Shown here: piece after piece, positions 6,419 to 52,137 of the stretch
Layout of the letters: every line of letters starts with the position of its first letter
How positions within the stretch are numbered: position 1 is the stretch's first letter
From: a virus
Lineage: Duplodnaviria > Heunggongvirae > Uroviricota > Caudoviricetes
DNA: 64,000 nucleotides
Strand: one strand, 5' to 3'
IMG/VR virus record: IMGVR_UViG_3300024269_000002
Notes under the pieces: model-generated
Seen by the model: only the letters and a program-made list of their open reading frames with translations
Databases searched by the model: none
Told to the model about the DNA's origin: nothing
Translations under genes and position numbers: made by a program

Positions 6419-6838
6419 ATGGCAATCAAAGACATCGTGAAGGATACAACTATCCTGACTCAAAAGAGTGTTCCTTTTGTTTTCGGTGAGGATGATGCAA
6501 TCATTCAGGATCTGCAGGACACTGCAACTGCTCATGAAGATAACTGTGCAGGTCTTGCAGCTATTCAGCTCGGTATTCCAAAAAGAGTCATTGTGGTCAA
6601 GGAAGGCAGTAATTTTGTTACATACATAAATCCCGTCATTGTTAAGAGAAGTCGTGAATCCTACATGGCAACGGAAGGCTGCCTCAGCTTGGAAGGTCCT
6701 CGTACTGTTAAGAGATACCGATCTGTCATGGTAAGTTATACTACTGCCAATGGCAAGAAGAGGTCCAAAACATTTAACGGTTTTGTGGCAGAAATTTTGC
6801 AGCACGAGATTGATCATTGTAACGGTGTACTTATTTGA
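6419..6838 (+). CDS. def: peptide deformylase
   Basis: All three PDF motifs present: GLAAIQLG, EGCLS, HEIDHCNG; GGAGG RBS 8 nt upstream. Confidence 0.85.
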   Translation: MAIKDIVKDTTILTQKSVPFVFGEDDAIIQDLQDTATAHEDNCAGLAAIQLGIPKRVIVVKEGSNFVTYINPVIVKRSRESYMATEGCLSLEGPRTVKRYRSVMVSYTTANGKKRSKTFNGFVAEILQHEIDHCNGVLI

Positions 6839-6854
6839 GAGGAGGAACTATTAC

Positions 6855-7196
6855 ATGACGTATGCGGAAGAGACAACAGCTGTTGTTAAGATCTGGATCG
6901 ATGATGTTCGTCCTGCTCCTCCCGGATACAAGTGGATAAAATCCACAAATGAAGCCATTCGATATCTTCAAGAATGTCAGTGGTACGATCGCTATGTTGT
7001 TGATGTCTCTCTGATCATCGATATTGATCATGATGCAGGAGATTATGCAGCTGATGGTGGTGACTACATTAAGATACTCGATTGGATGGAAAGTGAGCGT
7101 CTTGGCGCTACATTCCACATTCACTCTATGAACCCTGTTGGAGTTCAAAATATGAGAAACATCATTCAGAAAAATGGTTGGAGGGAAATGAGATGA
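6855..7196 (+). CDS. receiver-like small protein (cREC-type REC-fold, DHD..G motif)
   Basis: KIWIDDVRP...W...IDIDHDAGD...GGDYIKILDWM pattern, recalled as the cREC / cyclic-phosphate-processing receiver family; GGAGGA RBS. Confidence 0.45.
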   Translation: MTYAEETTAVVKIWIDDVRPAPPGYKWIKSTNEAIRYLQECQWYDRYVVDVSLIIDIDHDAGDYAADGGDYIKILDWMESERLGATFHIHSMNPVGVQNMRNIIQKNGWREMR

Positions 7197-11343: not shown

Positions 11344-11344
11344 G

Positions 11345-12733
11345 ATGAAAGAATTTATTTCTATGGATGCTTGTGAACTTGCAAAGACCAACTATACCGA
11401 GTATTCTCAGTATGTTGCTCAAGGTCGTAGTTATCCTTCTATCTATGATGGTGCAAAGAGTAGCTACAAGAGAGCAATCTACGGTATGTATACCAACAAG
11501 ACAAGCAAGACTGTTAAGGTTGCGGAGCTGGCTGCTCATGCACTACCTTATCACCCTCATCCCACTTCCGTGGCAGGAGTCATCATTCAGCTCGGTGATG
11601 GTGGTAACAAGCTCAAGCTGATGGATACTCAAGGTAACTGGGGTAACAGTGCTCGACATATTGAAGCTTCTGCAGAGAGATATATTGGCGGTAAACTGTC
11701 TACTCTGGCGGAACATCTACTGTGTGACTCTATTGAATACTGCAAGTTCGTTCCTGGTGAGATTGATAAGGATGAGCCTCTTGCTCTTCCTGCTCTCATT
11801 CCTCTGTGCTTTATCAATGGTAACAGTGGTATTCCTTCTGGATTGCCTACTTTGAATATTCCAACAATTGACATCATGGGAATGATTGATTACTATCTTG
11901 ATATTCTTGCTCACAAGGATGTTGAGTACAAGCCGAAGAAGTATCCGAAGCCCAATCTGGAAATCAATGTGCTGTCCTCTGTTGAGGATTGGAATAATGT
12001 CTTGGAGACTGGTAAAGGAAGCATCCGCACTGCTCCTATCATGAGCATTGACGCTGCTAATGTAATCACGATTACTGGTTTACCGAAGACTAAAACAGTT
12101 GATCATGTTCGTAAGATTGTCGAGAAGGAAATCTTGCTCGACAAGATCGATATTCGAGATGAGACAGCTGAGACTATTCGTATTGTTATTGAGAAAGTTC
12201 CTCATAAGCAGTGCGATATGAAAGAACTGTTCAAGAGACTGTACACTAAATTGCAGTCCTCCGAGACTTACAACCTTGCATTCTTCGATGAAGATAAGAT
12301 CTATGTACCTTGTAGCTTCCACAAAGTCATTAGAACTAATCTTCAGTATGTCATTGACACTCAGCGCAATCGTCTAGCTAAGGAGCTGGAACAGCTGAAG
12401 ATTCGCCTGCGTGTTCTGGAAATCATTGAGGACATGAAGAAAAAGAACAGTCTGAAGAGCTTGTTTGACCTGGATAGTAAGGCTGCGCTTAGTCACATCT
12501 GTGCCACATATAAATGTGATCAGGATATTGCAAGCAAGGTGTTGCAGAAGCCTATTTCTTACCTGACAAAGGAACATGGTCAGGAGTTGATTGATCTTCG
12601 TAATGATATTGAAGCAAACGAAGCCGATCAGAGTGACATCTATGAGTTCATGACTCGTAAGTACAAAGCTCTGAAGAAGGAGCTAACTCCCGTTCTTAAA
12701 AATAAGTTTGCTCCTACAACTTTCATCAAGTAA
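11345..12733 (+). CDS. type II DNA topoisomerase, breakage-reunion subunit (GyrA-like; T4 gp52-like)
   Basis: RSYPSIYDGAKSSYKRAIYGM matches the GyrA N-terminal winged-helix region; immediately follows the GyrB-like gene. Confidence 0.8.
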   Translation: MKEFISMDACELAKTNYTEYSQYVAQGRSYPSIYDGAKSSYKRAIYGMYTNKTSKTVKVAELAAHALPYHPHPTSVAGVIIQLGDGGNKLKLMDTQGNWGNSARHIEASAERYIGGKLSTLAEHLLCDSIEYCKFVPGEIDKDEPLALPALIPLCFINGNSGIPSGLPTLNIPTIDIMGMIDYYLDILAHKDVEYKPKKYPKPNLEINVLSSVEDWNNVLETGKGSIRTAPIMSIDAANVITITGLPKTKTVDHVRKIVEKEILLDKIDIRDETAETIRIVIEKVPHKQCDMKELFKRLYTKLQSSETYNLAFFDEDKIYVPCSFHKVIRTNLQYVIDTQRNRLAKELEQLKIRLRVLEIIEDMKKKNSLKSLFDLDSKAALSHICATYKCDQDIASKVLQKPISYLTKEHGQELIDLRNDIEANEADQSDIYEFMTRKYKALKKELTPVLKNKFAPTTFIK

Positions 12734-15069: not shown

Positions 15070-16596
15070 ATGAGAGATATATTTGTTTATGATACAAGTA
15101 AGAAGGTTCCAAAGGATGTAACACATGTTAGAGTTGCAGATGGCGTTGAGATAATTCCATTCAATGCATTCAAAAATTGCAAACATCTTGAATCAATCGA
15201 GATTCCGTCAAGTGTAAGAGCAATCGGTATAAATGCTTTTGAGGGATGTGGTAACATAACTGATGTGTATGTTACTAACGACTCAGTATGGAACAATATG
15301 AGCTTCATGGGTGGTTGGTGTGATCCTGTTAAAGAGCGTGGAGCTAGTTTGCATATAGTTGACAAGCTAACAGATTGTGAAGTTACAGCTACACAAGATG
15401 ATACAGAGGAAGAAGATGAGCTAGATGATCTTTCTTGGAGCGACATGCTTGATGAACTCGATGGTGATGAGGATTGGATGGATTCCCTCTATCAAGAGTT
15501 TTGTGATGAAGCTTATGCTCTTGTTGAGAAAGAAGGCTTTACTGACGTGTTTACTGAGCCTTCAACACAGATGGGACGTGGTGGTGATTTCTTCTGGGCC
15601 AAGAAAAATGGCGTAAATTATCGTGGTAACTATGATTTTGAATCTGAACAAGATATGTTCTGGAATTGTTGTTATGAAGCGGATTCAAGAGAAGAAGCTA
15701 TTGAACTGTGTGCAAAGAAATATGCAAGTATTATCTTGAGTTCATTGAAGCCTGTAGTTGATGATCTTGATGAAGCTGCTTTCAGTGGCGGTATGGCTGG
15801 TGACAACAGTGCTAGCGGTGGCACTATTCGTGGTAGAGGTGCTTCTACGCAGCCTGGAAAGAACAACTACTTGAACAGAATGAAGAGCAAGAATCCTGAT
15901 CTTGTTGATACTATGGTAATCAAAGTTAGTGACATCAAGCCTGGAATGATTACTCAAGCTGGTCAAGTTAAGGAAGCTGAGGCTCGTAATCATGTTAGCG
16001 GTGGCAAGAAGATGTACATCATGCACACTAATGGTTATGATGGATTCTGGGGTCTTGATGAAACAATGGATGTTATGGTTGATCCTGAGAACAAGTCAAA
16101 GCCCTTTGCTGGTGATTACAGAGCTCTGCTGAAGATGGGCTTAAAGGAATCTAAATCTATCAAAGAGAAAATAGGAGATAATTATTCTAACAATATCGAA
16201 TATTGTCCTAGTTGTGGTGAATACTTAGATGGTAGTGATATCTCCGATGAACGTGACAATTCAGTAAGGTATACTTGTTATCATTGCGGTAACTCATTTG
16301 ACCGCACTAAATACTATAATGAATCTAAATCTATTGATGAAGCTCTTGTTACTGATTACATGGACAGTGAAACACTTCATAGAGCGATGCAACATTTGAT
16401 GTTTGGAACCTTCAATGCATATAATCAAGAAGAGAACATGATTGTTAAGACTACTACAAATCATGGTGCATTTGGAGGCGTAAATCAATTACATAGATAT
16501 TTCAAATTTGTACATGGTGAGGATGGATGGGAAGCATACGAAGTTTCTTCTACAGGTGATAAAGTAGGGGACGCATTCTTGATTGACAACATCTAA
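15070..16596 (+). CDS. BspA-type leucine-rich-repeat protein with acidic linker and C-terminal zinc ribbon
   Basis: N-terminal LRR_5-like repeats (IIPFNAFKNCKHLESIEIPSSVRAIGINAFEGC), D/E-rich segment, CPSCG...CYHCG pairs. Confidence 0.5.
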   Translation: MRDIFVYDTSKKVPKDVTHVRVADGVEIIPFNAFKNCKHLESIEIPSSVRAIGINAFEGCGNITDVYVTNDSVWNNMSFMGGWCDPVKERGASLHIVDKLTDCEVTATQDDTEEEDELDDLSWSDMLDELDGDEDWMDSLYQEFCDEAYALVEKEGFTDVFTEPSTQMGRGGDFFWAKKNGVNYRGNYDFESEQDMFWNCCYEADSREEAIELCAKKYASIILSSLKPVVDDLDEAAFSGGMAGDNSASGGTIRGRGASTQPGKNNYLNRMKSKNPDLVDTMVIKVSDIKPGMITQAGQVKEAEARNHVSGGKKMYIMHTNGYDGFWGLDETMDVMVDPENKSKPFAGDYRALLKMGLKESKSIKEKIGDNYSNNIEYCPSCGEYLDGSDISDERDNSVRYTCYHCGNSFDRTKYYNESKSIDEALVTDYMDSETLHRAMQHLMFGTFNAYNQEENMIVKTTTNHGAFGGVNQLHRYFKFVHGEDGWEAYEVSSTGDKVGDAFLIDNI

Positions 16597-17351: not shown

Positions 17352-20084
17352 ATGAATGAACATGATGTAAAAAGTCTTGTAAGTGATCTATCTAGCATCG
17401 ATGGAATCTTTGTTTCGGAAACATTTCCTGTTCGAACTAGAAAGTATGCTCAAGGATACCGAGTATATGCAAAATACATCTTTGATGATCAACAGTATGC
17501 ACAGAATCTTGAAACTCTTGTTAAGAATGGTTGTGACAAAAACACTGTTCTTGAGGACCGTGGAGAGTGCGTGAAAAAGTTCATGGACAGTGCTATTCGG
17601 TCAATCATTGATAAATATTCTAACTTGAATATTGCTGTTAACCACAAGCTGTGGGGAATAGCTGGTCATGATGTTTGGGATGAAGTTACATTGACTGTCA
17701 AACCTGCTTCAGGCATTGCAGAGGATCTAGAAACTGAACTCGAAATTCCTGCTCCATACAATCAGTACTACGAGTTTTCTCCCAACGAAGTAAACTTTGA
17801 TGAGTTGCCTGATGCTTTTGATCATTACAAAGATCTGAAAGTTATTGCTGAGTTGTATGCAAAAGAGCAGTATGAAGATGCACTTGCTGATAACTGTCTT
17901 GACTTCTGCTGGCTTGTTGAAGATGAGATTGGTAAGCTGTTGTTAGTCACCACAGCTGGTTTGCGTGTGTATCCGATTACACTTGAAGAGATTCAGAATT
18001 GTGTTGGTGATGGATCCAGTGACAACTACTTTGATTTTGATGAGGGGTACACTGGTGAGCCGTCCTCTACTGAGTACGGTGATGCAGTGTCTCGTTACTT
18101 TAGAGAGATGACTGATGCTATCGAAAAGTACAACATCCGTAAAATCGGTCGTAAGCGTTCTATCGAGTATGATGGTGTTGTTAACGGACACAAGTTCTTC
18201 TTTGTTGAAGGTAATACTGGAACAGGACATTATGCTAAAGAACTTTACATTGATGGTAAAGAAGTAAATCTATATCAATCAAAAGAGTCAGAAAGATCTT
18301 TTGCATATCTGAATGAAATGAATCAGTTTGGTATTCTGTCACTTGTTAAGATGTTAGAGAATGATAATCTTAGCGGAATTGTTTATCGTGATGTTGATAC
18401 TCTTGACGACTATGAAGAGGGTCTGGTTGAAGATGTTGAAATGTCTGATGCTCAGAGACTTGCCCTCCAGGAATTGGATTCCTGTTTAGAATGTGGCGAG
18501 CTTACTGCAGAGAAACATGCTCTTGCTTATCAGATTCAGTGGGATATCAACTTTGAGGATGTACTGCTGTTTATCAACGGTATTGATGCTGATTTGAAAG
18601 ATATCAAACATGTGGAGTACGGCGACTGCGATGAAACAAAATTTGATGGTTGCTACTCTGTAACATTCCACAACGGTGATGTTAAGAATTATGGCTGGCA
18701 CGATTTTGATATGACTGGTTCATTGACCTGCATTGATTGTAATGAAGGTATTCTAAGTGCCATTACTGGGATGACTCCAGTTGGTTTGACTGAAGATGTT
18801 GATGACGGTTGGGAGAAGCCTTTTGACTGGACTGAACGTTATGTTAAAGATGGTTTCGTGATCTACAACAATTATCAAGGCGCTTGGCATCTAGAACAAA
18901 CAAGACCTAAGACCAAGCACTTCGGTAACTACAAAACTCTTGAAGCTGCAAAAGCAGCTGGTGACAAAGAGATTGCTGCAAGAGAGAACAAGAATAGAGG
19001 CAAGAAACCTCAGTTTGGCGTTCATCGTTTCTCTACTGATTCAATCATCTTCAGAGGCACTGAAGCAGAGTGTGGTAAATACATTGACGATAGAGAAGAG
19101 CTGTGGGACGACGCAGAAGTTTACATGATGACTCCTTCTGATCCACATTATCTACAAGAGGGAACTGGCTCTGACACTGCTCATGTTATTCGTGATGTAC
19201 TTACTACTGCATCAAAAGAAGATAAGGATGGTTGGACAAAAACTATTGCTGATATCATTGATGTTATTCCCGACCAATACATTGATGATTTGTATGACAT
19301 TACATCCGAGAAGCTGAAGGATGTTAAAGTCACAGACGCAGAAAAGAAAAAGATTCTTGATGCATCTGGCTCCGACATCGACTTGAATAACGACTTTGAC
19401 ACAGTCGGAAAGATTCTTGCACTGTTCGATGTACAGTCTTGGGATGCAGCAACATTGAAGAAGTTTGTTCTTGTTGTTCTGGGAATTGTGGCTGTTATTG
19501 AACCTACTCCGATTTTAGAAATTGTAACAGCGGTTGTTTCTCTGCTTCCTGCTGATATTGTTAAGACTATTCTTTCCATTACAAACACGATCGGCAATCC
19601 TGTAGGTGCAATCGGCACTATTGCAAACCGTGCTTATCAAAGCAGTAAAAATGAAGATTATGCTCGTGTTGATGCAAAAGACTTTGTAAAACATCCTATG
19701 AACTATGATGTGACTAGTATGCTTGAATTTGAAGTTCAGGATGATGTTAAGGTCTACATTCATAGAGGTCCTGGAAGACAGCGTGAGTTCTACATTATTA
19801 TCGGCGACGCATATGTTCAGCACGCATTCAACAAGCTTGAAACTGTTGAGAAGTATCTCAGAAGAAACAATCTTGTTAAAGAAGTTATCTCAGAAAGTTT
19901 CAAGCCAGGTGATGTTGTTTATGTTACCGTTTGTAACAGACAAGGTCGTGTTCGTAAGATGATTTCTCCTGATGTTGTGGAAGTAGAGCTGCATGACAAC
20001 GGCGTCTATCCCGAAAGAATTGATCGGTACTATGTAGACGAAGTGGAACTACAGTACAGTGATGATCTGGACGATGAGTTCTAA
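17352..20084 (+). CDS. large hypothetical protein (910 aa)
   Basis: Long uninterrupted ORF with RBS; no recognisable motifs. Confidence 0.6.
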   Translation: MNEHDVKSLVSDLSSIDGIFVSETFPVRTRKYAQGYRVYAKYIFDDQQYAQNLETLVKNGCDKNTVLEDRGECVKKFMDSAIRSIIDKYSNLNIAVNHKLWGIAGHDVWDEVTLTVKPASGIAEDLETELEIPAPYNQYYEFSPNEVNFDELPDAFDHYKDLKVIAELYAKEQYEDALADNCLDFCWLVEDEIGKLLLVTTAGLRVYPITLEEIQNCVGDGSSDNYFDFDEGYTGEPSSTEYGDAVSRYFREMTDAIEKYNIRKIGRKRSIEYDGVVNGHKFFFVEGNTGTGHYAKELYIDGKEVNLYQSKESERSFAYLNEMNQFGILSLVKMLENDNLSGIVYRDVDTLDDYEEGLVEDVEMSDAQRLALQELDSCLECGELTAEKHALAYQIQWDINFEDVLLFINGIDADLKDIKHVEYGDCDETKFDGCYSVTFHNGDVKNYGWHDFDMTGSLTCIDCNEGILSAITGMTPVGLTEDVDDGWEKPFDWTERYVKDGFVIYNNYQGAWHLEQTRPKTKHFGNYKTLEAAKAAGDKEIAARENKNRGKKPQFGVHRFSTDSIIFRGTEAECGKYIDDREELWDDAEVYMMTPSDPHYLQEGTGSDTAHVIRDVLTTASKEDKDGWTKTIADIIDVIPDQYIDDLYDITSEKLKDVKVTDAEKKKILDASGSDIDLNNDFDTVGKILALFDVQSWDAATLKKFVLVVLGIVAVIEPTPILEIVTAVVSLLPADIVKTILSITNTIGNPVGAIGTIANRAYQSSKNEDYARVDAKDFVKHPMNYDVTSMLEFEVQDDVKVYIHRGPGRQREFYIIIGDAYVQHAFNKLETVEKYLRRNNLVKEVISESFKPGDVVYVTVCNRQGRVRKMISPDVVEVELHDNGVYPERIDRYYVDEVELQYSDDLDDEF

Positions 20085-20454: not shown

Positions 20455-20739
20455 ATGAAATCATTGATTCGGAGCATCGTTATCAAGATAGCAGTAGCAG
20501 TTATTCTCTGCACAGTGCTATCATTGGTACTAAGTGCAATCATGCCAACATTCGGCAATGATATTGCAATGGGACAGCTGGAACATGATGATGTAAGTTT
20601 CATGCAGATGGAAATGTGGAACCGAATTCAGAATGGTGTTACAACTGTTCAGTACATTATCACAGTCATTTGTGGTGTCTTAGTCGGCACCGATGTATAC
20701 AAACTTATCAAAACAAGAAAGAAGGAAATTGACAAATGA
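20455..20739 (+). CDS. small two-TM membrane protein (possible partner of the downstream SPFH protein)
   Basis: Two hydrophobic helices; ATGA overlap with the SPFH lipoprotein gene. Confidence 0.5.
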   Translation: MKSLIRSIVIKIAVAVILCTVLSLVLSAIMPTFGNDIAMGQLEHDDVSFMQMEMWNRIQNGVTTVQYIITVICGVLVGTDVYKLIKTRKKEIDK

Positions 20740-21686
20740 AGAAGCATATCAAGAAGTTCTTGCTGCTTGCAGTTCTGGTAGTCCTGGTGTGTTCTCTGGC
20801 TGGTTGTCGTAGACCTTATGACACTCCTGAGTTCGTGACCATTGAAGCATCTCAGACTGCATTCCTGATCCCTCTGGTAGGTGACACTACTGATCAGGGT
20901 GTATTTGAATCTGAAGAGTTGCTGTTGCAGGCAAAGGTTGCAACAAAGGAAATTCAGATTCCGCACCGTTGGGTACAGACTGGACGCAGAGATTATACCG
21001 GTGAGTGGCGTCCGAGTGCAACTTTGATTGTTGTCGAACGTAAGCCTGTATCTCGTTCCTGGGAATCTGGTGAGTCTACTGCAACATCTGCAAACAAAGC
21101 AATCTTCGGCGAGACTTCAGATAACATCGGCATCTATGTTGGTATGAACTGCACTGCAATGATTGAAGAAAAGGATGCAGCAAAGTTCTTGTATCGTTAC
21201 AACAACACGCCTCTGGAAACGATTATCGATACTGACATCAAGAAGATGGTGGAAGATCGTTTCAATATTGAGACAGCAAAGTATACTTCTACAGAGCTCG
21301 GTGCAAAGAAGGGTGACATCATGGAAGCCGTCAAGGAGTATGTTGTCACATATTTCAAGGATTATGGCATCACGATTACTGTGCTTGGTCTGAAGGAGGG
21401 TATCAGTTTTGAAAACCCCGCAATTCAGGAAGCTATTGATGCAAAGTTTGCTTCCGAACAAGAACTGGTAATTCAGCAGAACAAGAATGAGGCAAATCTG
21501 GCTAAGGCAGAAGCAGAGGCGAAGGCAATGATCATGCTGGCAGAAGCTGAGGCAGAAGCTAATCGTCTGCTTGCCGAATCTTTGACTGACGAAATTCTGG
21601 CACAGCTCTACTACGAGAAGTGGGATGGTAAGCTGCCTACTTACTACGGTGGTGGCGATGAAGTTCCTGTAATTCAGGTTCCCTGA
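20736..21686 (+). CDS. SPFH/band-7 domain lipoprotein (prohibitin/HflC-like)
   Basis: Signal peptide plus lipobox (LAGC), then an SPFH C-terminal pattern (...AIQEAIDAKFASEQE...AEAEAKAMIMLAEAEAEANRLLAESLTDEILAQLYYEKWDGKLP). Confidence 0.65.
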   Translation: MKKHIKKFLLLAVLVVLVCSLAGCRRPYDTPEFVTIEASQTAFLIPLVGDTTDQGVFESEELLLQAKVATKEIQIPHRWVQTGRRDYTGEWRPSATLIVVERKPVSRSWESGESTATSANKAIFGETSDNIGIYVGMNCTAMIEEKDAAKFLYRYNNTPLETIIDTDIKKMVEDRFNIETAKYTSTELGAKKGDIMEAVKEYVVTYFKDYGITITVLGLKEGISFENPAIQEAIDAKFASEQELVIQQNKNEANLAKAEAEAKAMIMLAEAEAEANRLLAESLTDEILAQLYYEKWDGKLPTYYGGGDEVPVIQVP

Positions 21687-21702
21687 TAACTAACAATTAA
21701 CA

Positions 21703-21746
21703 ATACTAGCGCAGCCGCATAAAGTGGCTGCGCTAGTATTATTTTT
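21703..21746 (+). terminator. rho-independent terminator
   Basis: 14-bp stem atactagcgcagcc/ggctgcgctagtat followed by a T tract. Confidence 0.8.
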
Positions 21747-21750
21747 ACAG

Positions 21751-21779
21751 TTGAATAAAATATCAAACTACTTTATAAT
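21751..21779 (+). promoter_or_regulatory. conserved promoter TTGAAT-N17-TATAAT
   Basis: acagTTGAATaaaatatcaaactacttTATAAT. Confidence 0.55.
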
Positions 21780-21814
21780 ATATGTATAATAAGAGACTTG
21801 TTGAGGTGAGTTCT

Positions 21815-22009
21815 TTGACTAAACAGCAGTTACAATCAGAGCTCGATCGGATGACTGCAGGCAAGTACAGCCCTTACAGTATCTGTGACTTAACTGACAA
21901 GATTTCTTGGATGTGGAAGTGGCGTAAGATTACTGAAGAGGAAAAGAACTCAATGGTTGAACAAGCCATCAGTATTATGCAGTCTGGTGAGTATTCTGTT
22001 TATCGTTGA
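21815..22009 (+). CDS. hypothetical small protein (start uncertain)
   Basis: The ORF-track ATG at 21782 lies inside the promoter; in-frame TTG at 21815 and ATG at 21854 follow GAGGTGAG. Confidence 0.35.
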   Translation: MTKQQLQSELDRMTAGKYSPYSICDLTDKISWMWKWRKITEEEKNSMVEQAISIMQSGEYSVYR

Positions 22010-22024
22010 ATTGGAGGAACAGTT

Positions 22025-22384
22025 ATGAAGAAGTTTGTTACCCTTGTTGATTTCGGTGTGGAGTTTGGTAAGGCTACTTATGGTCACGGCAGTATGCGTC
22101 TGATGTCCATTGGAACTACCAGCGACGGTTACTATACTTTCCGTTGTCGTGATGATGAGGGCAATGAGAAGGTCTTCAAAGTTTCCTGTTGGGACCAGAC
22201 TGCTCCTGCGCTGATTGATCGTGTTGCTATTCTGGAACATGCAATTCAGTATGGTAAGGATGCCGCCGTTGAGCTATTGAAGTGCTACGGTCCTGACAAC
22301 TATCTGCAGACCAAAGATAACTACAATGATCTTCTGTATCTCCTCACTGGTGGCAAGGAAGGTTCTCCTATGGAGGATTTCTGA
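22025..22384 (+). CDS. hypothetical protein
   Basis: GGAGG RBS. Confidence 0.5.
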   Translation: MKKFVTLVDFGVEFGKATYGHGSMRLMSIGTTSDGYYTFRCRDDEGNEKVFKVSCWDQTAPALIDRVAILEHAIQYGKDAAVELLKCYGPDNYLQTKDNYNDLLYLLTGGKEGSPMEDF

Positions 22385-22590
22385 TGTTAACAATCTTGAA
22401 ACCTTGTCCCTTCTGTAAAGGAAAGGCAAAGCGTAAGCACGGCAAGTACAATCTTCTTGGAGCGTATGGTACTCCAGAACAAGATAGAACTTGGTATGCT
22501 GTTTATTGCACAAAGTGTCACATAAGTCAGTGGCCTAAGACTTATCATTCAAGAGAAGAGTCGGACGCCGCTTGGAATGAACGGAGTTGA
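22384..22590 (+). CDS. zinc-ribbon protein
   Basis: CPFC...CTKC cysteine pairs; ATGA overlaps on both sides. Confidence 0.5.
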   Translation: MLTILKPCPFCKGKAKRKHGKYNLLGAYGTPEQDRTWYAVYCTKCHISQWPKTYHSREESDAAWNERS

Positions 22591-22595
22591 TTTTA

Positions 22596-23260
22596 TGGCA
22601 AATGTTGATAAGATGTATACATATTTGAGAGGTTATCTGATTGGTGCAAACATGACTGAGTCTATCAAGGCTCTGAGTTTTGCTCGACAGCAGCATTCTC
22701 TACAAACTCGTAAGGATGGCACACCTTACATTGTTCATCCACTGTCTATGGCTTGTTATGCTGTAGCCCTTGGTTTGCGTGATGACAACATCATTGCAAC
22801 TATCCTACTTCATGATGTTCCTGAGGACTGTGGTGTTCCTGTTGACTACATTCCCGTTAATAGTGTTATTCGTGACGCTGTTAAGCATATGACGATTACA
22901 AAGTTTGACACCGATGTCGATAAGATTGAAACAAAGTGTCGGTATTTCAATGAACTCCTCGAGAGTAGAGAAGCTCTTATTTGTAAAGCTCTGGATCGGT
23001 ATAACAATCTTTCCGATGCACCGTTGTCTCTTTCTCCCGATGCTGTGGCAAAGAACGTTGCTGAAACCGAAGTACTTCTGCTTCCTGTTTTGAAGTCTGC
23101 AAAAGCGATCTATGCTGATCTTGCCGATGCACTTTTCATCATGAGAACTAATCTTGAGGTCCTCGTCGGTATTTTGAAGCAACAGCACTGGGATCAGTAC
23201 ACTAAGTGGAAGTGCATCTATGAGCGGCAAACTTCCGTTACTTCCTTAAATAAGGAATGA
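22596..23260 (+). CDS. RelA/SpoT-family HD-domain hydrolase (small alarmone hydrolase, SAH)
   Basis: YIVHPLSMACYAVALGL...ATILLHDVPEDCG matches the (p)ppGpp-hydrolase HD motif; about 220 aa single-domain protein. Confidence 0.65.
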
Positions 23261-23270
23261 GGTGAGGTAG

Positions 23271-23504
23271 TTGGAACACTGGGTAAAACGTGTTGGAGAC
23301 AGAGTATTCCTTGTTGGTGAACATGCTGACGACGGCTTGTATGAGATTCTGCGTCGTATTGAACAATTAGAGAATGATTTGGATCTTCAAAAAACTATGT
23401 ATCGCAATCTAGAGCGTAAGTATGAGATTGCTAAACAATGGAACAAATGCACAGAGGAGGAAGTAACTGATGCCTTGTTACAAACTATTCAACAAGTGTC
23501 CTGA
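23271..23504 (+). CDS. hypothetical small protein
   Basis: TTG start after GAGGTGAGG. Confidence 0.45.
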   Translation: MEHWVKRVGDRVFLVGEHADDGLYEILRRIEQLENDLDLQKTMYRNLERKYEIAKQWNKCTEEEVTDALLQTIQQVS

Positions 23505-23700
23505 TACTGCAATCAGGTTACGATTTGCTTGGACACCGTTAAGTGACATGAATGGAAAAACAATCTGGCTACAAAGATACTGGGAGTTTGGAGAGTGGTG
23601 GGAATTCGGCTTCTTTGTCCTTCGTGGTAGCAAGAAACAGTTTCCTACTAAACAGTTGTTCTGGGACTACATCAAATATCGAGTTGCATCGATGTACTAA
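23470..23700 (+). CDS. hypothetical Trp-rich small protein
   Basis: GGAGG RBS 10 nt upstream; overlaps the end of the previous ORF. Confidence 0.4.
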   Translation: MPCYKLFNKCPDTAIRLRFAWTPLSDMNGKTIWLQRYWEFGEWWEFGFFVLRGSKKQFPTKQLFWDYIKYRVASMY

Positions 23701-23715
23701 GGGGGAATACATACT

Positions 23716-24318
23716 ATGGATTGGATGCATAACAAAGCATATTACAGATTTGTCTACATCATGATTAACATCTTTTCTGCGTTGATCACAGTTTCTCCTG
23801 CGATTCTTGTTCTGTTGTTACCTGAAAATCTGCAGTGGATCGCATTTATTCTTATTCCGTTCACTATCAGTCAGATCTTCTTTGTTGCAACTCCTGTTCT
23901 CAGTGTGCTGGAAGCTTACAAGAATGCTTCAAGCAAGAGAGGCCTTATTCATGAAAAAGATATCTATGCTTTGTTCAAGGAAGATGGCACTGCAAAACTT
24001 CATGTTGGTGACATTGATACACTGCCTCGTTATAATGTAGAAATTCCTGAAACGAAAGTTACAATGGTACCGACAGAGGGCTTCTGGATTCAAGACAGTG
24101 AGATCTGGCAGCAGACTGGTGAGCCTACTAAACATTTGCTACCCGTCTGTAACAGTTGCGGTAAAGAGTTAGGAATGAAATTCATGGAAGACTCCACATT
24201 CAAGCATTGTCCTGGATGTGGCAAAAGAATCACACTTGCTCGTATTCCGAATAACTGGTTAGAAGAAATGCAAGCACAAGAAGAGTTAAGAACGAAACTG
24301 AAGGATAAAGCTGAATGA
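23716..24318 (+). CDS. membrane protein with C-terminal zinc ribbon
   Basis: Two N-terminal TM helices; CNSCG...CPGCG. Confidence 0.5.
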   Translation: MDWMHNKAYYRFVYIMINIFSALITVSPAILVLLLPENLQWIAFILIPFTISQIFFVATPVLSVLEAYKNASSKRGLIHEKDIYALFKEDGTAKLHVGDIDTLPRYNVEIPETKVTMVPTEGFWIQDSEIWQQTGEPTKHLLPVCNSCGKELGMKFMEDSTFKHCPGCGKRITLARIPNNWLEEMQAQEELRTKLKDKAE

Positions 24319-24584
24319 CGTATGTACATTACTGGCATTTTCAAAAAGCTTGGTATGTAAGACTTACAGACTGCTCGACTCCAGAAAGAGTCTATTGGCA
24401 CGACAGCGCTAGGATTCAAGAGTTCTGGAATCAACATTATCTTATTGCTGGCTCTGAATGGATGACAGAACGAGAAGTCAGAACTAAGTTGAAAGAAGCT
24501 AATCCTGACTTTATAATAATTAAAGATAAGCCCTTCCATGAGGGAAGACGATGGTTCGGTTACAAAGATGGCTCAAGGAGATAA
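24315..24584 (+). CDS. hypothetical protein
   Basis: ATGA-coupled ORF. Confidence 0.45.
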   Translation: MTYVHYWHFQKAWYVRLTDCSTPERVYWHDSARIQEFWNQHYLIAGSEWMTEREVRTKLKEANPDFIIIKDKPFHEGRRWFGYKDGSRR

Positions 24585-24586
24585 CA

Positions 24587-24916
24587 ATGCCAACTATTCA
24601 TGATTGTGAAAGATGTACTCAAGAATGTCCTCAAAGACAACTTGCAAGAGAGAATGCGGAAAAGCGTATGTATGCAACTCATGAATTTGTTGCACTACAG
24701 AAGGAAATTGAAGCAGGAAATCTAACTTACATTGTACATTCCCACTGGATGTGGAATAAGTATAACGGTGAAGTTAGATGTAGGAACTGCAAAGCTCTTA
24801 TCGGTGTGTGTTTTTCTGAAACATCACTAAACGAACTCAAGAACGAACAACACTACTGTTACAACTGCGGTGCAAGGATGGTGGAGGTAACGAATGCCAG
24901 ATCAACTGATTCGTAA
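24587..24916 (+). CDS. zinc-ribbon protein
   Basis: AAGGAG RBS; CERC...CRNC...CYNCG. Confidence 0.5.
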   Translation: MPTIHDCERCTQECPQRQLARENAEKRMYATHEFVALQKEIEAGNLTYIVHSHWMWNKYNGEVRCRNCKALIGVCFSETSLNELKNEQHYCYNCGARMVEVTNARSTDS

Positions 24917-25253
24917 ATGTGATGCACGCAGAGCGGTACTTAGAGAATGTCCTTCTGCAGCTCATGTAATTGATTCTATCAAAACTGTGGATGCTATGCC
25001 AGTAGTTCATGCACATCTTGTTGAAAGAATTGTAGATCATGAAGTTCCCAGTTACACTGTATTTGAATGCAGTGCTTGTTTTAATAGATGCGACAACTGG
25101 GTAAGATACTGCTCTTACTGTGGAGCAAGATTGGATGGTGAAACAGAATTTGTCAGAACTATTACCACACCCGGATTTTCTCTGGACAATCAGCACAACA
25201 AGAATTATGAGGAGAAGAGCAAAGATGTTAACTCTGAGGAGTACATATGGTAG
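24894..25253 (+). CDS. zinc-ribbon protein
   Basis: CSAC...CSYCG. Confidence 0.45.
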   Translation: MPDQLIRKCDARRAVLRECPSAAHVIDSIKTVDAMPVVHAHLVERIVDHEVPSYTVFECSACFNRCDNWVRYCSYCGARLDGETEFVRTITTPGFSLDNQHNKNYEEKSKDVNSEEYIW

Positions 25254-25447
25254 TCGACGAAAAAACATGTAAGTTCGCAAAGAATCGAGAATGCATAATT
25301 ACTGGTCGTCTATGTATTCATTCTGATCCATATGTGTGCGAGTACATTCATAAAGCATATGAGCAGGGCTACAAAGAGGGTTACAATGCTTGTCAAGCAG
25401 ATGATCTATTTGAGGGATCTGGCATAGGAGGTTTTCATGACTACTGA
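25247..25447 (+). CDS. small Cys-rich protein
   Basis: ORF in track. Confidence 0.4.
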   Translation: MVVDEKTCKFAKNRECIITGRLCIHSDPYVCEYIHKAYEQGYKEGYNACQADDLFEGSGIGGFHDY

Positions 25448-27302: not shown

Positions 27303-27338
27303 TGACGCTGCAGAAATGCAGCGTCATGTTTTGTTTCT
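27303..27338 (+). terminator. hairpin/terminator TGACGCTGCA-gaaa-TGCAGCGTCA followed by a T-rich tract
   Basis: 10-bp stem; its stem sequence is shared with the hairpin at 28882-28915. Confidence 0.55.
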
Positions 27339-27427: not shown

Positions 27428-28411
27428 ATGTATCTGGCTCTACCAACAAGTATCCATGTAGATACAGTAAATCCACCTACAAGGACGAACTGCTTGTGGC
27501 TATGTACAACTCCGATACGAGTGATTCCTGTAACAGGAACATTCATCGAAGAATCTACAATGAATGCTGAATCTTTTACTTCGTTTATTACTAATGACTC
27601 TTTTCAAGTATATGAGTTCAACACATACCCTGTTATCAAATTTTATGTTCAAACAAGTAATAGTTGGGAAGACGTTATTACAAATAATACATACAACATC
27701 ACCATGAATATGTCAGGATGCTTCGGATACTCTACCAACCCAACAGAGATTGATGAAGGCGATAGTGCAACGCTTTACTTCCAGGCAAATGCAGGGTATT
27801 CCTTGCCGACTAGTATCTATGTAAGTGGGGCGGAATATGACTGGAACTGGTCTGTCGGGGAATTGATCCTTCGTAATCCCACAGGCCCGGTGTATGTAAG
27901 TATAAGTTGTGTGGGGAATTGCTGTTTTGCGGCAGGGACACCTGTATTGATGAGTAACGGTACTTTCAAAAACATTGAAAACATTGTAGCTGGCGACATC
28001 GTTATAACATTCAATGAAGAATCCGAGGTATATGAGCCTGGAACGGTTATATACTTCTTTGTTAAGCCAAACACGCAGGATATGGCGAAGCTGATATTTG
28101 AAGACGGCACAGAAATAACTATGAACGCATATCACCCGATGTATACGACTGACGGCTGGAAATCGCTGACAGGAAGCGGAGGTCTGCCGATCCTGACGAA
28201 GGAGGACACAATTCTTTCGACCGACAAGAAGTGGGTGAAAATATCGGACATTGTGCGGTGGTTCAGCGATGAATATATCACAACTTACAACCTTGATGTC
28301 GAGAATAACGACAACTACTTTGTAGGAAAGACACCAGTAATGGCAAGCAATGTCGAATCCTGCTTTGTTCCTTCGCCTGGCATAAAACCTGCACCTGAGA
28401 TAACAGTATGA
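27428..28411 (+). CDS. Hint/bacterial-intein-like (BIL) domain protein
   Basis: CFAAGTPVLMSNGTFKNIENIVAGDIV...YHPMYTTDGW...YNLDVENNDNYFVG...VMASN is a Hint-domain signature lacking a +1 nucleophile (BIL-like); AAAGGAG RBS; GC-rich outlier. Confidence 0.6.
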   Translation: MYLALPTSIHVDTVNPPTRTNCLWLCTTPIRVIPVTGTFIEESTMNAESFTSFITNDSFQVYEFNTYPVIKFYVQTSNSWEDVITNNTYNITMNMSGCFGYSTNPTEIDEGDSATLYFQANAGYSLPTSIYVSGAEYDWNWSVGELILRNPTGPVYVSISCVGNCCFAAGTPVLMSNGTFKNIENIVAGDIVITFNEESEVYEPGTVIYFFVKPNTQDMAKLIFEDGTEITMNAYHPMYTTDGWKSLTGSGGLPILTKEDTILSTDKKWVKISDIVRWFSDEYITTYNLDVENNDNYFVGKTPVMASNVESCFVPSPGIKPAPEITV

Positions 28412-30836: not shown

Positions 30837-31279
30837 GAAGAGTTACAGTATACCGAAAGAAACCAACACGACAGTCTCTTGAAGTAGATCTTGTTGTTCA
30901 CAAGGAGATGCTTGAACAAGCTGAAATTGAGATCTGTCGCCATAAAGACACTATCGACACGCTTCAGAAAGAACTTGTAGAAGCTCATGACAAGCTGCAT
31001 CAACTGGAGAGGGCTGTTGTAACTCAATCTTGTTGTTGGATGTGTGCTAACAATCTAATGTGTCACCAAGGACGAGAGTTGCCTCAAAGTCCAGATGTTG
31101 CTTGTGGTAATTTCAAGTTCGGTTACAAAACATCAGAAAAACACAGTGACACTGTTTGTGATTACAAACATGGAAAAGTATGTTGGGCTCAGAAGGGTGC
31201 CCCTTTGTGTGATCCGGTGTTCTGTCCAGTAAAGGAGAAACGTCCAAGTGAAAACATTAACTTCGTGGCTACAAAATGA
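30833..31279 (+). CDS. Cys-rich protein with N-terminal coiled-coil
   Basis: CCWMCANNLMCH...C..C..C cluster. Confidence 0.45.
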   Translation: MRRVTVYRKKPTRQSLEVDLVVHKEMLEQAEIEICRHKDTIDTLQKELVEAHDKLHQLERAVVTQSCCWMCANNLMCHQGRELPQSPDVACGNFKFGYKTSEKHSDTVCDYKHGKVCWAQKGAPLCDPVFCPVKEKRPSENINFVATK

Positions 31280-31511
31280 CGCAAAAGATTGTGGTTTGTG
31301 CGACCCTCCGATGAAAGCTCAAGAAGCTGTTGACTTCCTAAAGAACTATCTTCTCGGAGAGAACTGGTATGTTACAATGCCACAGAATGCAGAACAGTGT
31401 AATACTGCAATTGTAATTGAAATCTTATGCAAGTATTCTCCGAAATTCCGTAAGGAATTGAAAGAGGCAAAGAAGGAGAAGAAACGTCGTGAGAAGAATA
31501 AGCACATATAA
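31248..31511 (+). CDS. hypothetical protein with basic KKEKKRREKNK tail
   Basis: ORF in track. Confidence 0.4.
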   Translation: MKTLTSWLQNDAKDCGLCDPPMKAQEAVDFLKNYLLGENWYVTMPQNAEQCNTAIVIEILCKYSPKFRKELKEAKKEKKRREKNKHI

Positions 31512-31979: not shown

Positions 31980-32131
31980 ATGCAAGACAAGCAAACTATT
32001 ATCATTGAGCTTGTTAAAAGCTTGAATGCTGGAAACACTAGCTACTCTCAAGATAGAGTGAAGATAGCTATTCAGCAATACAACCAGTTGGTTGATTACG
32101 AAATTGTGAAAGGACCGAAGGTGAAAGTATG
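31980..32131 (+). CDS. small hypothetical protein (50 aa, below the track cutoff)
   Basis: ATG after AAGAGGAATGA; fills the gap between neighbouring genes; ends in an ATGA overlap with the next ORF. Confidence 0.3.
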
Positions 32132-32599
32132 ACAATTGAAATCCTAAACAGAGACATGATCATGTGCTGGAAGCAAGGTGACATCTTTATGAAGAATGTT
32201 CTTGCAAACATGATTGATGCAGTTAAGAAAGCAAGTATGACTGCAAAGGGTCGTGTAGAGATTACTGAGCAGTTAGTAAATGAAACCCTACAGAAGTATC
32301 AGAAGACTGTTCAGGAACAGTATGATTCTTGCCCTGACTCTGCAGCTGATCCTGATCGTGATGCAGAGCTGAAGCAGCGTAAAGCTGATTACTTGAGAGA
32401 GCTGCGCATTGTTAAGGAGTATACTCCTCAGCTGTTAACTGATCCTGAGGAGATCAAGAAGACAATCATGTCACTTGTTGGTGACTTGCCTCTTGTTAAA
32501 TCCAATAGAGGTAACATCATGAAGCTGATTGCTCCTGAGTTCAAGGGCAAGGCTGATATGAGCGTCGTCAATAAAGTTGTTGGAGAATTGCTGGCATGA
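32129..32599 (+). CDS. hypothetical protein
   Basis: ORF in track. Confidence 0.5.
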   Translation: MTIEILNRDMIMCWKQGDIFMKNVLANMIDAVKKASMTAKGRVEITEQLVNETLQKYQKTVQEQYDSCPDSAADPDRDAELKQRKADYLRELRIVKEYTPQLLTDPEEIKKTIMSLVGDLPLVKSNRGNIMKLIAPEFKGKADMSVVNKVVGELLA

Positions 32600-32954: not shown

Positions 32955-33155
32955 ATGTTGAATGATCTGAAGGTTTTCTTGGATAACAAGCTGAAGCAGT
33001 GCGAGGGGATCTATGACAGATATCAACTGCAGCTCATCAAAAGTGAAGCTTTTGGAGCATGTAACTTTCTCCTCACTGTAACTAAAGATAATTCTGTTGT
33101 TGAACTGTGGGAAGAATATAGACCGAAGTTCGATGACTGCATGGAGGGCTTTTGA
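32955..33155 (+). CDS. hypothetical small protein
   Basis: GGAGG RBS. Confidence 0.45.
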   Translation: MLNDLKVFLDNKLKQCEGIYDRYQLQLIKSEAFGACNFLLTVTKDNSVVELWEEYRPKFDDCMEGF

Positions 33156-33535
33156 TGTTTGACAGTAAAACTACTGGTGAAGAATATACTCTCACCATTG
33201 CGAACGAAACTATTCTAATCGGTTGTAATGTACATGCATACGGCAATGAAGTTGTTGTGAAGATTCCTGAAGGTGTCAAAGAAATTGCAGGGTATGCAAT
33301 GCAGGGTTGTTCTGGTGTGAAGAGAATCATTCTTCCGAAGTCACTGAGAAAAATCGGACAAGCTGCTTTTATCAGCTGTACTGATCTGGAAGCAGTTTAC
33401 ATTCCGGACACTGTAACTGAAATTGGTGTTGGAGTCTTCCGGAATTGTCCTAAACTGAAACGAGTACATGTCCCTCCAAAGATCATGGAAAGTGCATTTG
33501 CAAAAGATCGTGGTTTACCGAGTTATATGTGGTAA
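33152..33535 (+). CDS. BspA-type leucine-rich-repeat protein
   Basis: IPEGVKEIAGYAMQGCSGVKRIILPKSLRKIGQAAFISCTDLEAVYIPDTVTEIGVGVFRNCPKLKRVHVP (LRR_5-like repeats). Confidence 0.5.
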   Translation: MMFDSKTTGEEYTLTIANETILIGCNVHAYGNEVVVKIPEGVKEIAGYAMQGCSGVKRIILPKSLRKIGQAAFISCTDLEAVYIPDTVTEIGVGVFRNCPKLKRVHVPPKIMESAFAKDRGLPSYMW

Positions 33536-34228: not shown

Positions 34229-35653
34229 ATGTCACAACAAACATTTAACGCGGCGATGCGATATGGTGGACTACGTAATGGAGCTTCATACGAGTCTTGG
34301 CCTACCAATGCCGTGGCTTATCAAGGATGTTACAATGGTCTACACTACCCTAACGTTGAAGAGGCAGGCTACATAGGTGGAACTCGTTACGGTATCATTC
34401 AATTTGATGGCATAAGTGAACTGTGTAGTACAAAAAAGATTACTGCTCTTGAAATGACGATTGATTTTCCTACAGCTGGTAACAACACTAAGAAAACAAT
34501 CAAATTCTGGAAGTCAAATTATACTTCAGTTGATACAAGTAAAAATCCAAGTTCCTACATTGGTGCATCACTGGGTGACTATGCAACAACTGTTGTTGCA
34601 TACAACAAGTCAGAAACTATAACTCTGAACGAGACAACAAACTCAGAGTTATTCAACTCTTTTGTTAACTACTTTTCTACATCTGGTAATGATCTAATTT
34701 GTATCTATAATGGTGAAGATACCGACGATCTTATTGGAAAAGGTAATGAATCTACTAGTACACAGTGTTACAGCCCAAACTATCTTCAGTTCAAAACATG
34801 CACACTAAAAGTTACTTACAAAGAAAAGTATACAGTAACTTACGTTGCTAATGGAGGCTCAGGAGCTCCTGCAGCACAAGCAAAGATAGAGGGTGAAGAT
34901 TTAACTCTAAGCTCAACTGTTCCAACTTACACTGGAAGAACTTTTAAGGGCTGGGGAACTTCAGCAACTGATACAACTGTAGATTATGCAGCTGGCGGAA
35001 CATATAGTACGGATGGAAACATCACACTGTATGCAATCTGGGAACTCAATGAATACACAATCTCCTACAATCGTAACGGATATACAGTTGCTTCAGGATT
35101 TCCTAGTCCCTCCACGCAAACCAAAACTTACGGAACAGCATTAACTCTATCCTCTAGCAAACCTGTTTTAGACCCCACACAATTGACTGCGTATACAGTC
35201 ACATTGAACGCGAATGGGGGAACTTGTACATCAAGTAGTTTAACAGCAGCTCGAACAAAAACAAATACATTTACGAGCTGGAATACAAAAGCTGATGGCA
35301 CTGGAGTAAACTACAATGTAGGAGCATCCTACACAGCAGAATCCAATGCAACACTATATATAAAAGCAGATAGCTCAACTGTTACAAACAACGTTGACCT
35401 ACCTACTGCAACAAAAACAGGTTACAAGTTTTTAGGCTGGGCAACTAGCCCTACAGCAATCGGTGGAACAACAGGAAGTTACACACCTACAGGAAATGTA
35501 ACGTTGTACGCAATCTGGGAAGCTCAGGGTCTTGTTTATATTGACAATGGAACAACTCTTGAACCTTATTCTATCTGGATCGACAACGGCACAAGCTGGG
35601 ACCAGTACATGGCATACGTGGATAACGGCACAAGTTGGGATCCTTGTGGTTAA
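34229..35653 (+). CDS. surface/receptor-binding-like protein with Listeria-Bacteroides repeats
   Basis: Three repeats of the form F.GW.T...DTTVDY..GGTY...GNITLYAIWE (Flg_new / InlB-B-type repeat). Confidence 0.65.
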   Translation: MSQQTFNAAMRYGGLRNGASYESWPTNAVAYQGCYNGLHYPNVEEAGYIGGTRYGIIQFDGISELCSTKKITALEMTIDFPTAGNNTKKTIKFWKSNYTSVDTSKNPSSYIGASLGDYATTVVAYNKSETITLNETTNSELFNSFVNYFSTSGNDLICIYNGEDTDDLIGKGNESTSTQCYSPNYLQFKTCTLKVTYKEKYTVTYVANGGSGAPAAQAKIEGEDLTLSSTVPTYTGRTFKGWGTSATDTTVDYAAGGTYSTDGNITLYAIWELNEYTISYNRNGYTVASGFPSPSTQTKTYGTALTLSSSKPVLDPTQLTAYTVTLNANGGTCTSSSLTAARTKTNTFTSWNTKADGTGVNYNVGASYTAESNATLYIKADSSTVTNNVDLPTATKTGYKFLGWATSPTAIGGTTGSYTPTGNVTLYAIWEAQGLVYIDNGTTLEPYSIWIDNGTSWDQYMAYVDNGTSWDPCG

Positions 35654-40937: not shown

Positions 40938-41238
40938 GGAAGAAACAATTCAGCAGCTTGCATGTGGGATATGCTCAGTTACAGCTAACCGAGGTGAGTG
41001 TACTGGCTGCTCTTTTGCAAAAAACAGCTCTTGTGAACATTTTAGAGCAGCTGAAATCTTGTACGCAAGAGGATTTCGTAAAACTGAAGAGTCTGTTACA
41101 GGAGAGTGGATCCGATGCAATGGACCAACATATTCGTACTTTCGATGTTCAATCTGCAATGATTGGCAGATGACACAGTTGCCTCGGTGTATGAAATGTA
41201 TGACAAAGATGCGAAATATAACGGAGTTTGAACTATGA
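40921..41238 (+). CDS. zinc-ribbon protein
   Basis: CGIC...CTGC...C..C...CSIC...C.KC. Confidence 0.45.
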   Translation: MVQLTKEETIQQLACGICSVTANRGECTGCSFAKNSSCEHFRAAEILYARGFRKTEESVTGEWIRCNGPTYSYFRCSICNDWQMTQLPRCMKCMTKMRNITEFEL

Positions 41239-52037: not shown

Positions 52038-52057
52038 CGGTTATTTCACATACAAAG

Positions 52058-52095
52058 AATGAGGTGCTATTCGCGTAGCACCTCATTTCTTGTAT
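52058..52095 (+). terminator. terminator-like hairpin
   Basis: aatgaggtgcta/tagcacctcatt 12-bp stem followed by TCTTGTAT. Confidence 0.5.
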
Positions 52096-52137
52096 ATAAA
52101 GTATATAGATCAAACTTTGAGGAAGGATGTTGATAGT

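Follow-up and report, generated by a model that had tools for sequence, protein, structure and literature searches.

A small alarmone hydrolase encoded by an uncultured gut jumbo phage and its predicted action on host alarmones

The stretch of DNA analyzed here, 64,000 nucleotides (nt) of IMG/VR virus record IMGVR_UViG_3300024269_000002 (Caudoviricetes; hereafter the window), is part of a jumbo phage known only from metagenomes, and the phage carries at 22595-23260 a gene whose product is confirmed as a single-domain RelA/SpoT-type HD hydrolase, i.e. a small alarmone hydrolase (SAH); the carrier of this SAH comes from the gut. The initial annotation of the window, made from the letters alone, had proposed this family, and the proposal is supported by the motifs of RelA/SpoT homologs (RSH), by profile matches, and by structural matches. 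Judging from the sequence and from a structural model, it is likely that the SAH is catalytically competent and that, from within a phage accessory operon, it erases the products of host RelA/SpoT-family enzymes, preventing alarmone-mediated growth arrest.

Family assignment, active site, and fold

The hydrolase domain of RSH proteins is recognized by six HD motifs, R / H / HD / ED / D(K/R) / N (PMC9293644), all of which are present in the SAH, as R39-K40, H48, H73-D74, E77-D78, D134-R135, and N138. Their positions, with the residues of SpoT, Rel, and Thermus thermophilus Rel (TtRel) to which they align, are as follows.

22709..22714, + strand: HD1 motif R39-K40, aligned with the base-stacking R43-R44 of TtRel (7ohg/6s2t)
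22736..22738, + strand: HD2 residue His48, a metal ligand, invariant and aligned with the HP of SpoT/Rel
22811..22828, + strand: HD3/HD4 motif H73-D74-V-P-E77-D78, metal ligands and catalytic Glu-Asp, aligned with LLHDxxED of SpoT/Rel
22994..23008, + strand: HD5/HD6 motif D134-R135-Y-N-N138, metal-ligand Asp and base-contacting Asn, N138 being aligned with N150 of TtRel

With residue roles assigned from PMC9293644 and PMC10083569, the metal-binding tetrad H48, H73, D74, and D134 is complete and matches the same residues of SpoT/Rel, the catalytic Glu-Asp pair E77-D78 stands directly behind the HD dyad (HDVPED), and the base-contacting pair is retained, R39 corresponding to R43 and N138 to N150 of TtRel. 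Conservation was followed in two alignments, one of 55 distant homologs (A1) and one of 62 close homologs (A2). In the former, no substitution occurs at R39, H48, H73, D74, E77, or D134, and conservation of R135 and N138 is at least 90%; in the latter, all ten HD-motif residues are invariant. The initial annotation had named the HD metal-binding residues as the point to verify by alignment, and against SpoT, Rel, and TtRel the metal, catalytic, and base-contact residues are all present and conserved.

Profile searches lead to the same family. Pfam HD_4 matches with 32.4 bits, above its gathering threshold of 27.2, and Pfam gives besides it only the general HD family, below threshold, which bears out the earlier remark that the protein has no synthetase domain. 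The NCBIfam model TIGR00691 (spoT_relA) aligns over its first 120 positions (E = 8.5e-14) with 50.8 bits against a cut-off of 499.2, a cut-off out of reach for a single domain because the model describes a long RSH of 687 positions. Among PHROGs, phrog_15275 (unknown function) and phrog_990 (metal-dependent phosphohydrolase) are matched. The single sequence, searched against the PDB, finds RelA/SpoT-family hydrolases only, including Acinetobacter baumannii SpoT (7e-13) and MESH1 (1.6e-8) as well as mycobacterial Rel, T. thermophilus Rel, RelH, and Aph1. When the profile of the 55 distant homologs is used instead, all 23 of 23 matches are RSH proteins, for example Bacillus subtilis Rel (6e-31), Staphylococcus aureus Rel (2.5e-29), MESH1 (1e-21), and Aph1 (6e-12), and the alignment extends over Rel residues 1-178, i.e. 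the whole hydrolase domain. With this profile, the long Rel proteins score 1e-27 to 1e-31 versus 1e-12 to 1e-21 for the solved cellular SAHs.

The AlphaFold2 model of the SAH, built on the 55-sequence alignment, has a mean predicted local distance difference test score (pLDDT) of 94.9, a predicted template-modeling score (pTM) of 0.91, and 11 helices. Its 44 best structural matches in the PDB are RSH hydrolase domains sharing the all-alpha RSH hydrolase fold, among them long Rel/SpoT, MESH1 (also in complex with NADPH and with PAPS), Pseudomonas aeruginosa SAH, RelH, Treponema denticola SAH, and Aph1, and a viral structure library yields HD proteins labeled "(p)ppGpp hydrolase" from jumbo phages and from giant viruses. 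The first HD proteins outside the RSH family are YqeK (E = 1.2) and YpgQ (E = 2.0), as compared with 1e-4 for Rel/SpoT. The initial annotation had considered that a non-alarmone HD phosphohydrolase might prove the better match; RSH proteins outrank such enzymes in both sequence and structure, and an HD nucleotidase of the YfbR/YqeK/YpgQ type was rejected, such proteins appearing only at E > 1 in the structural search and not at all among the PDB sequence matches.

The gene itself is described by two features.

22595..23260, + strand: SAH coding sequence, 221 amino acids (aa), stop codon TGA at 23258-23260, based on the list of open reading frames (ORFs), metagenome gene calls, and conservation of M1
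22583..22586, + strand: putative ribosome-binding site GGAG, 8 nt before the ATG at 22595, read from the sequence

The + strand ORF as a whole occupies 22577..23260 and counts 227 aa from its first ATG, so that an alternative start at 22577, upstream of 22595, would lengthen the SAH by 6 aa. The ATG at 22595 is likely the true start, because the GGAG lies 8 nt upstream of it, the stop of the preceding gene (22590) falls before it, the first residue of the 221-aa form (the Met of MANVDK) is invariant across 62 homologs, and metagenome gene callers independently yield the same 221-aa protein with the same start. The start at 22596 and the length of 220 aa given in the initial annotation thus need correction: the former is one base off, the frame from 22596 being full of stops and the correct frame running from 22595 or 22577, and the protein counts 221 aa from the ATG at 22595. 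Both peptides quoted there occur in the protein: residues 45-61 (nt 22727-22777) read YIVHPLSMACYAVALGL, and residues 68-80 (nt 22796-22834) read ATILLHDVPEDCG. The ORF is not a chance one, since the identical protein occurs on at least 14 metagenome contigs and the sequence matches 1278 clusters at E <= 1e-3 (5255 among 50%-identity representatives). An antisense ORF of 141 aa (22805-23230) was taken as non-coding, the + frame having thousands of homologs.

The clade to which this SAH belongs is abundant in uncultured gut jumbo phages and in Clostridia. In a collection of cultured phages, 320 records match the SAH at E <= 10; among the matches listed, identity is 22-33% where most of the protein is covered and below 60% in every case. 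The wider family, as seen in P0155, P0161, P0249, and P0137, also includes fusions in which a SAH is joined to NUDIX and histidine phosphatase domains, to an XRE-type helix-turn-helix domain, or to a GyrI-like domain, as well as tandem SAH-SAH proteins whose second copy is without the HD/ED residues (that of P0137 reads LLHEVLKK). Relatives 46-48% identical to the SAH occur in metagenome-assembled genomes (MAGs) of a Clostridia member from roe deer colon (L006, 2969-9408) and of an Acutalibacteraceae member (L005, 45-3963), where the neighbors encode enzymes that process ADP-ribose and nucleotides (a NADAR+Macro fusion, an ADP-ribosylglycohydrolase, a calcineurin-like phosphoesterase, and DUF1810), with no synthetase nearby; these two loci possibly represent an island of modification-erasing functions.

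The phage and the accessory region around the gene

The phage origin of the window, as stated in the initial annotation, is supported by its topoisomerase II, lysins, one-strand gene organization, and occurrence on large viral contigs. Almost all genes lie on one strand, with a coding density of ~92%. The large and small subunits of topoisomerase II are encoded at 9475-12733, a dUTPase and a dCMP deaminase are also present, and three consecutive very large proteins (940, 852, and 649 aa; 49215-56594) are each multi-module peptidoglycan hydrolases, probably virion-associated lysins; their modules, identified by PHROG and Pfam as endolysin, amidase, and M23 peptidase, show an unusual redundancy. 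The window sequence is also contained in a 222,986-bp contig of the Joint Genome Institute (JGI), the identical SAH is found on contigs of up to 254 kb, and in a scan with the close alignment (A2) relatives of the SAH sit on viral contigs of IMG/VR that are 177-402 kb long. When 20-26 kb was compared by megablast with 50,697 phage records, no cultured relative emerged at the DNA level, and no tRNA gene was found in the 64-kb window. With regard to the host, the topoisomerase is nearest (41-45%) to those of phages of Bacillus, Listeria, and Streptococcus, which points to phages of Bacillota, and related contigs have been binned into both Bacteroidales and Clostridia MAGs.

The features that frame the SAH gene and its most informative neighbors are listed below.

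21702-21740, + strand: terminator-like hairpin with a 17-bp stem, a pattern match from a consensus scan
21751-21779, + strand: putative sigma-70-like promoter TTGAAT-17-TATAAT, 3' of the hairpin at 21702-21740, from a consensus scan
22384..22590, + strand: Lar-like upstream neighbor, 68 aa, CxxC at aa 8 and 42, Pfam Lar_restr_allev 25.3 bits, below the cut-off of 28.6
27303..27326, + strand: next strong terminator-like hairpin, from a consensus scan, the presumed end of the SAH unit
31248..31511, + strand: homolog of Tad8, a type II Thoeris inhibitor, Pfam PF25189 93.2 bits against a cut-off of 27

On the basis of these patterns, the unit bracketed by 21702-21779 and 27303-27326 probably holds ~17 small genes including the SAH. 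The initial annotation had described the surroundings as a run of small zinc-ribbon genes, which holds insofar as paired CxxC motifs occur in four of ~12 neighbors (22384, 23716, 24551, and 24894), whereas all of them stay below the Pfam thresholds for zinc ribbons. A RelA_SpoT synthetase domain was reported neither for the neighbors at 21782-25447 nor for the other scanned proteins of the 64-kb window. Within the same accessory region, the Tad8 homolog and a YqeY-like gene (32129-32599) follow the SAH at a distance of 8-9 kb; in two related contigs, homologs of both stand directly upstream of the SAH, at 3228-4306 in L010 and at 4551-5640 in L004, with Tad8 at most 1.5 kb away, and the association of Tad8/YqeY with the SAH thus recurs in rearranged form.

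Conservation of the SAH far exceeds that of its surroundings, and within the mosaic accessory region the gene changes place. The related phage L009, whose SAH is 85% identical, keeps the adjacent Lar-like gene (84%) and three downstream genes, and on five IMG/VR contigs no gene within +-4 kb other than the SAH (64-71% identical) is recognizably common with the window. That an identity of 64-85% is kept where flanking genes are otherwise unrecognizable argues for strong purifying selection on the SAH.

Several other products of the window are worth recording. A Tpt1/KptA RNA 2'-phosphotransferase (41235-41852; 152.7 bits) and a cREC_REC cyclic-phosphate processing receiver protein (6750-7196; 57.2 bits) suggest, as predicted from their domains, functions in RNA-end repair or modification. 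Two SPFH/Band 7 (flotillin-like) proteins are encoded at 1892-3391 and 20736-21686, the first with a long coiled-coil tail rich in Ala, Glu, and Lys. A 327-aa protein at 27428-28411 carries a Hint-type domain (Pretoxin-HINT 28.0 bits against a cut-off of 27.7, Vint below threshold) and may represent an intein-like module or one of the polymorphic-toxin type. The proteins encoded at 15070-16596, 33152-33535, and 34229-35653 contain BspA-type leucine-rich repeats and Listeria-Bacteroides repeats, which are typical of gut-bacterial surface proteins, and may be host-adhesion or receptor-binding components. For the ORFs at 44230-49119 (1629 aa) and 17352-20084 (910 aa), neither Pfam nor any PHROG of assigned function gives a match; the former has two weak PHROG matches of unknown function, and the latter is 61% conserved in L009.

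Predicted role and competing readings

The reading that we favor, removal of host alarmones by an active SAH, can be broken down into steps. By homology, the SAH would bind Mn2+ through H48, H73, D74, and D134; E77-D78 would cleave the 3'-pyrophosphate from (p)ppGpp-type nucleotides, whose base would be held by R39 and N138. Probably expressed from a host-type promoter inside the phage accessory operon, the enzyme would clear away what host RelA/SpoT-family enzymes make, and the infected cell would thereby be kept from entering alarmone-mediated arrest, to the presumed benefit of the phage. The main target would be (p)ppGpp made by host Rel and small alarmone synthetases (SAS), which is favored because the SAH is nearest the (p)ppGpp hydrolase domain of long Rel, keeps the guanine-stacking Arg, and is conserved across many phage lineages, a distribution that fits a universal target better than a sporadic defense system. 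If the SAH were as promiscuous as the phage SAHs tested so far, the products of toxSAS enzymes, (pp)pApp and 3'-pyrophosphorylated tRNA, would be cancelled too.

Some points weigh against this reading. The Pfam HD_4 alignment spans just the first 54 of 156 profile positions, the promoter and terminator assignments are consensus matches only, and the search for partner genes took in 64 kb of a genome of 223-254 kb. Moreover, of the guanine contacts of TtRel, which include R43, R44, S45, N150, and T153 (PMC10083569), two are altered in the SAH, S45 to D41 and T153 to D141, and because of these acidic replacements a base preference is not readable from the SAH sequence.

A possible, if on balance less than even, explanation is that the SAH is a dedicated counter-defense enzyme that disarms abortive-infection toxins of the toxSAS type (CapRel, PhRel, FaRel2, and FaRel) rather than the housekeeping stringent response, degrading (pp)pApp and stripping the 3'-pyrophosphate from tRNA CCA ends. 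There is experimental precedent in stand-alone phage SAHs (PMC7229694, Table 1) and in the de-pyrophosphorylation of tRNA by SAHs (10.1101/2021.04.30.441581; PMC11245113), and the same genome encodes other enzymes acting on RNA ends, i.e. Tpt1/KptA and cREC_REC. The setting of the gene also fits, the SAH adjoining the Lar-like gene and sharing its region with Tad8, which comes within 1.5 kb of it in L004 and L010; both neighbors are compatible with a counter-defense role. However, toxSAS are sporadic, whereas the SAH is conserved across many divergent phage lineages, a pattern that a universal target fits better; the family profile comes nearest to long Rel of Firmicutes, in its (p)ppGpp hydrolase domain; and no toxSAS is known from the host. 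The idea that a phage SAH neutralizes toxSAS, as put forward in the initial annotation, restates work published in 2020 (PMC7229694).

A related proposal, which we regard as unlikely, is that the SAH represents an unclassified lineage, nearer to the hydrolase domain of Firmicute long Rel than to any solved SAH and abundant in gut jumbo phages and Clostridia, whose substrate would be 3'-pyrophosphorylated tRNA and which, with Tpt1/KptA and cREC_REC, would form one arm of an RNA-end repair and counter-defense kit against tRNA-targeting abortive-infection toxins.

It is less probable still that the same fold serves a non-alarmone substrate, the SAH being a NADPH phosphatase like MESH1 or acting on another 3'-phosphorylated nucleotide or signal. 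Human MESH1 is cited in 10.1101/2021.04.30.441581 as a reported NADPH phosphatase, and its complexes with NADPH and PAPS are among the structural matches of our model; the P. aeruginosa SAH is reported to be metabolically promiscuous (PMC9765508). Bacterial relatives, furthermore, have ADP-ribose-processing enzymes as neighbors or are joined to domains of the NUDIX and histidine-phosphatase kinds, and D41 and D141 deviate from the guanine-contacting residues of Rel. On the other hand, all residues required for 3'-pyrophosphate hydrolysis are conserved, the nearest profile homologs are bona fide (p)ppGpp hydrolase domains, and the window shows no sign of NADP(H) metabolism.

We give little credence to the view that the SAH is a (p)ppApp-specific hydrolase serving as immunity protein or type IV antitoxin to a toxin of the phage itself (Apk/Tas1-like or toxSAS), as known for Aph1 and ATfaRel. 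Such arrangements exist: in a temperate phage, the gene of Aph1 follows that of a (p)ppApp synthetase toxin (PMC10083569), and ATfaRel is a SAH antitoxin (PMC7229694). Aph1 (7smg) is also detectable as a homolog of the SAH. However, because no RelA_SpoT synthetase domain is found among the neighbors or the scanned proteins of the 64-kb window, the SAH is not the antitoxin of an adjacent toxSAS, and an ATfaRel-type role was rejected for want of a cognate synthetase gene in the window. The (p)ppApp-specific Aph1 carries Asp at the position of the base-stacking Arg (PMC10083569), a signature absent from the SAH, in which this Arg (R39) is invariant. Aph1 is also the weakest of the RSH matches and is without two helices (PMC10083569), whereas the SAH model has 11 helices and spans the long-Rel hydrolase domain; with R39 retained and the whole domain aligned, a ppApp-specific enzyme of the Aph1 type was rejected. 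Finally, an HD-like domain that has lost catalysis and serves in binding or regulation, comparable with the pseudo-hydrolase domain of RelA and recalling the degenerate second domain of P0137, is scarcely credible and was rejected, since the catalytic residues of the SAH are all intact and are invariant in the 62 close homologs.

Removal of host alarmones, the favored reading, would extend to a large uncultured group of animal-gut jumbo phages a strategy earlier demonstrated for two enterobacterial phages. From the strong purifying selection on the SAH amid reshuffled surroundings, it seems that this group of phages broadly depends on the ability to cancel RelA/SpoT-type host responses. The advance is incremental, because the idea of phage SAHs and its experimental proof already exist; the SAH described here nevertheless offers a well-defined, highly conserved candidate in which to compare the range of substrates, (p)ppGpp, (p)ppApp, and pyrophosphorylated tRNA, in a lineage that resembles a detached long-Rel hydrolase domain.

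Comparison with known systems

Stand-alone SAHs of phages PVP-SE1 (PbcSpo) and SSU5 (PaSpo) neutralize all tested toxSAS, namely CapRel, PhRel, PhRel2, FaRel2, and FaRel, and Jimmy et al. (2020), who tested these two phage SAHs, proposed that incoming phages that carry hydrolases could thereby bypass alarmone-mediated defense (PMC7229694). SAHs have since been found to restore tRNA that is 3'-pyrophosphorylated by FaRel2 (bioRxiv 10.1101/2021.04.30.441581; PMC11245113), and they are now routinely annotated in new phage genomes (PMC12846349). The window SAH is expected to follow the same logic as the PVP-SE1 and SSU5 enzymes, i.e. to erase RSH products so that the host cannot arrest growth (PMC7229694; PMC11245113). 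Like them, it is a phage-encoded single-domain RSH hydrolase without an adjacent synthetase toxin. Two phages that we take to be relatives of PVP-SE1, Salmonella phage SSE121 and Escherichia phage 4MG, have proteins ~30-32% identical to the window SAH over residues 26-138 only, about half its length, and no SSU5 protein is among the cultured-phage matches listed. The window SAH differs from the PVP-SE1 and SSU5 enzymes in its greater length, with an N-terminal helix (MYTYLRGY) that is strongly conserved and a C-terminal part made of three long helices, and in its carrier, an uncultured jumbo phage of a gut anaerobe as opposed to enterobacterial phages.

The best matches of the window SAH in both sequence and structure are the HD domains of long Rel/SpoT proteins, i.e. 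B. subtilis Rel (6yxa/8acu), S. aureus Rel (7oiw), A. baumannii SpoT (7qpr), T. thermophilus Rel (6s2t), and RelSeq (1vj7). The six HD motifs are common to both, including DR (not DK) in HD5, whereas the identity is ~22-26% and the window SAH is without the synthetase, TGS, and ACT domains, so that the intramolecular regulation of long RSH proteins would not apply to it. Cellular SAHs, on the other hand, comprising MESH1 (3nr1/5vxa), the P. aeruginosa enzyme (6yvc), RelH of Corynebacterium glutamicum and L. levettii (7qod, 7qoe), the T. denticola enzyme (7p1y), and Lmo0812 (4yf1), have the same single-domain architecture, fold, and active-site residues (PMC9293644), with target-normalized template-modeling scores of 0.62-0.78 to the model of the window SAH, but they are weaker sequence matches than long Rel, and the window SAH is ~30-40 residues longer. 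Aph1 (7smg), from a Bacteroides caccae prophage, belongs to the same superfamily, is likewise phage-associated, and acts on a 3'-pyrophosphorylated purine nucleotide; it has Asp for the base-stacking Arg, has lost two helices, and adjoins its cognate toxin (PMC10083569). In contrast, the Arg is invariant in the window SAH, whose alignment takes in the entire hydrolase domain of long Rel and which adjoins no toxin. Taken together, these comparisons place the window SAH, by its sequence, as a divergent member of the established group of phage SAHs that is nearer to the hydrolase domains of long Rel than to the solved SAHs.

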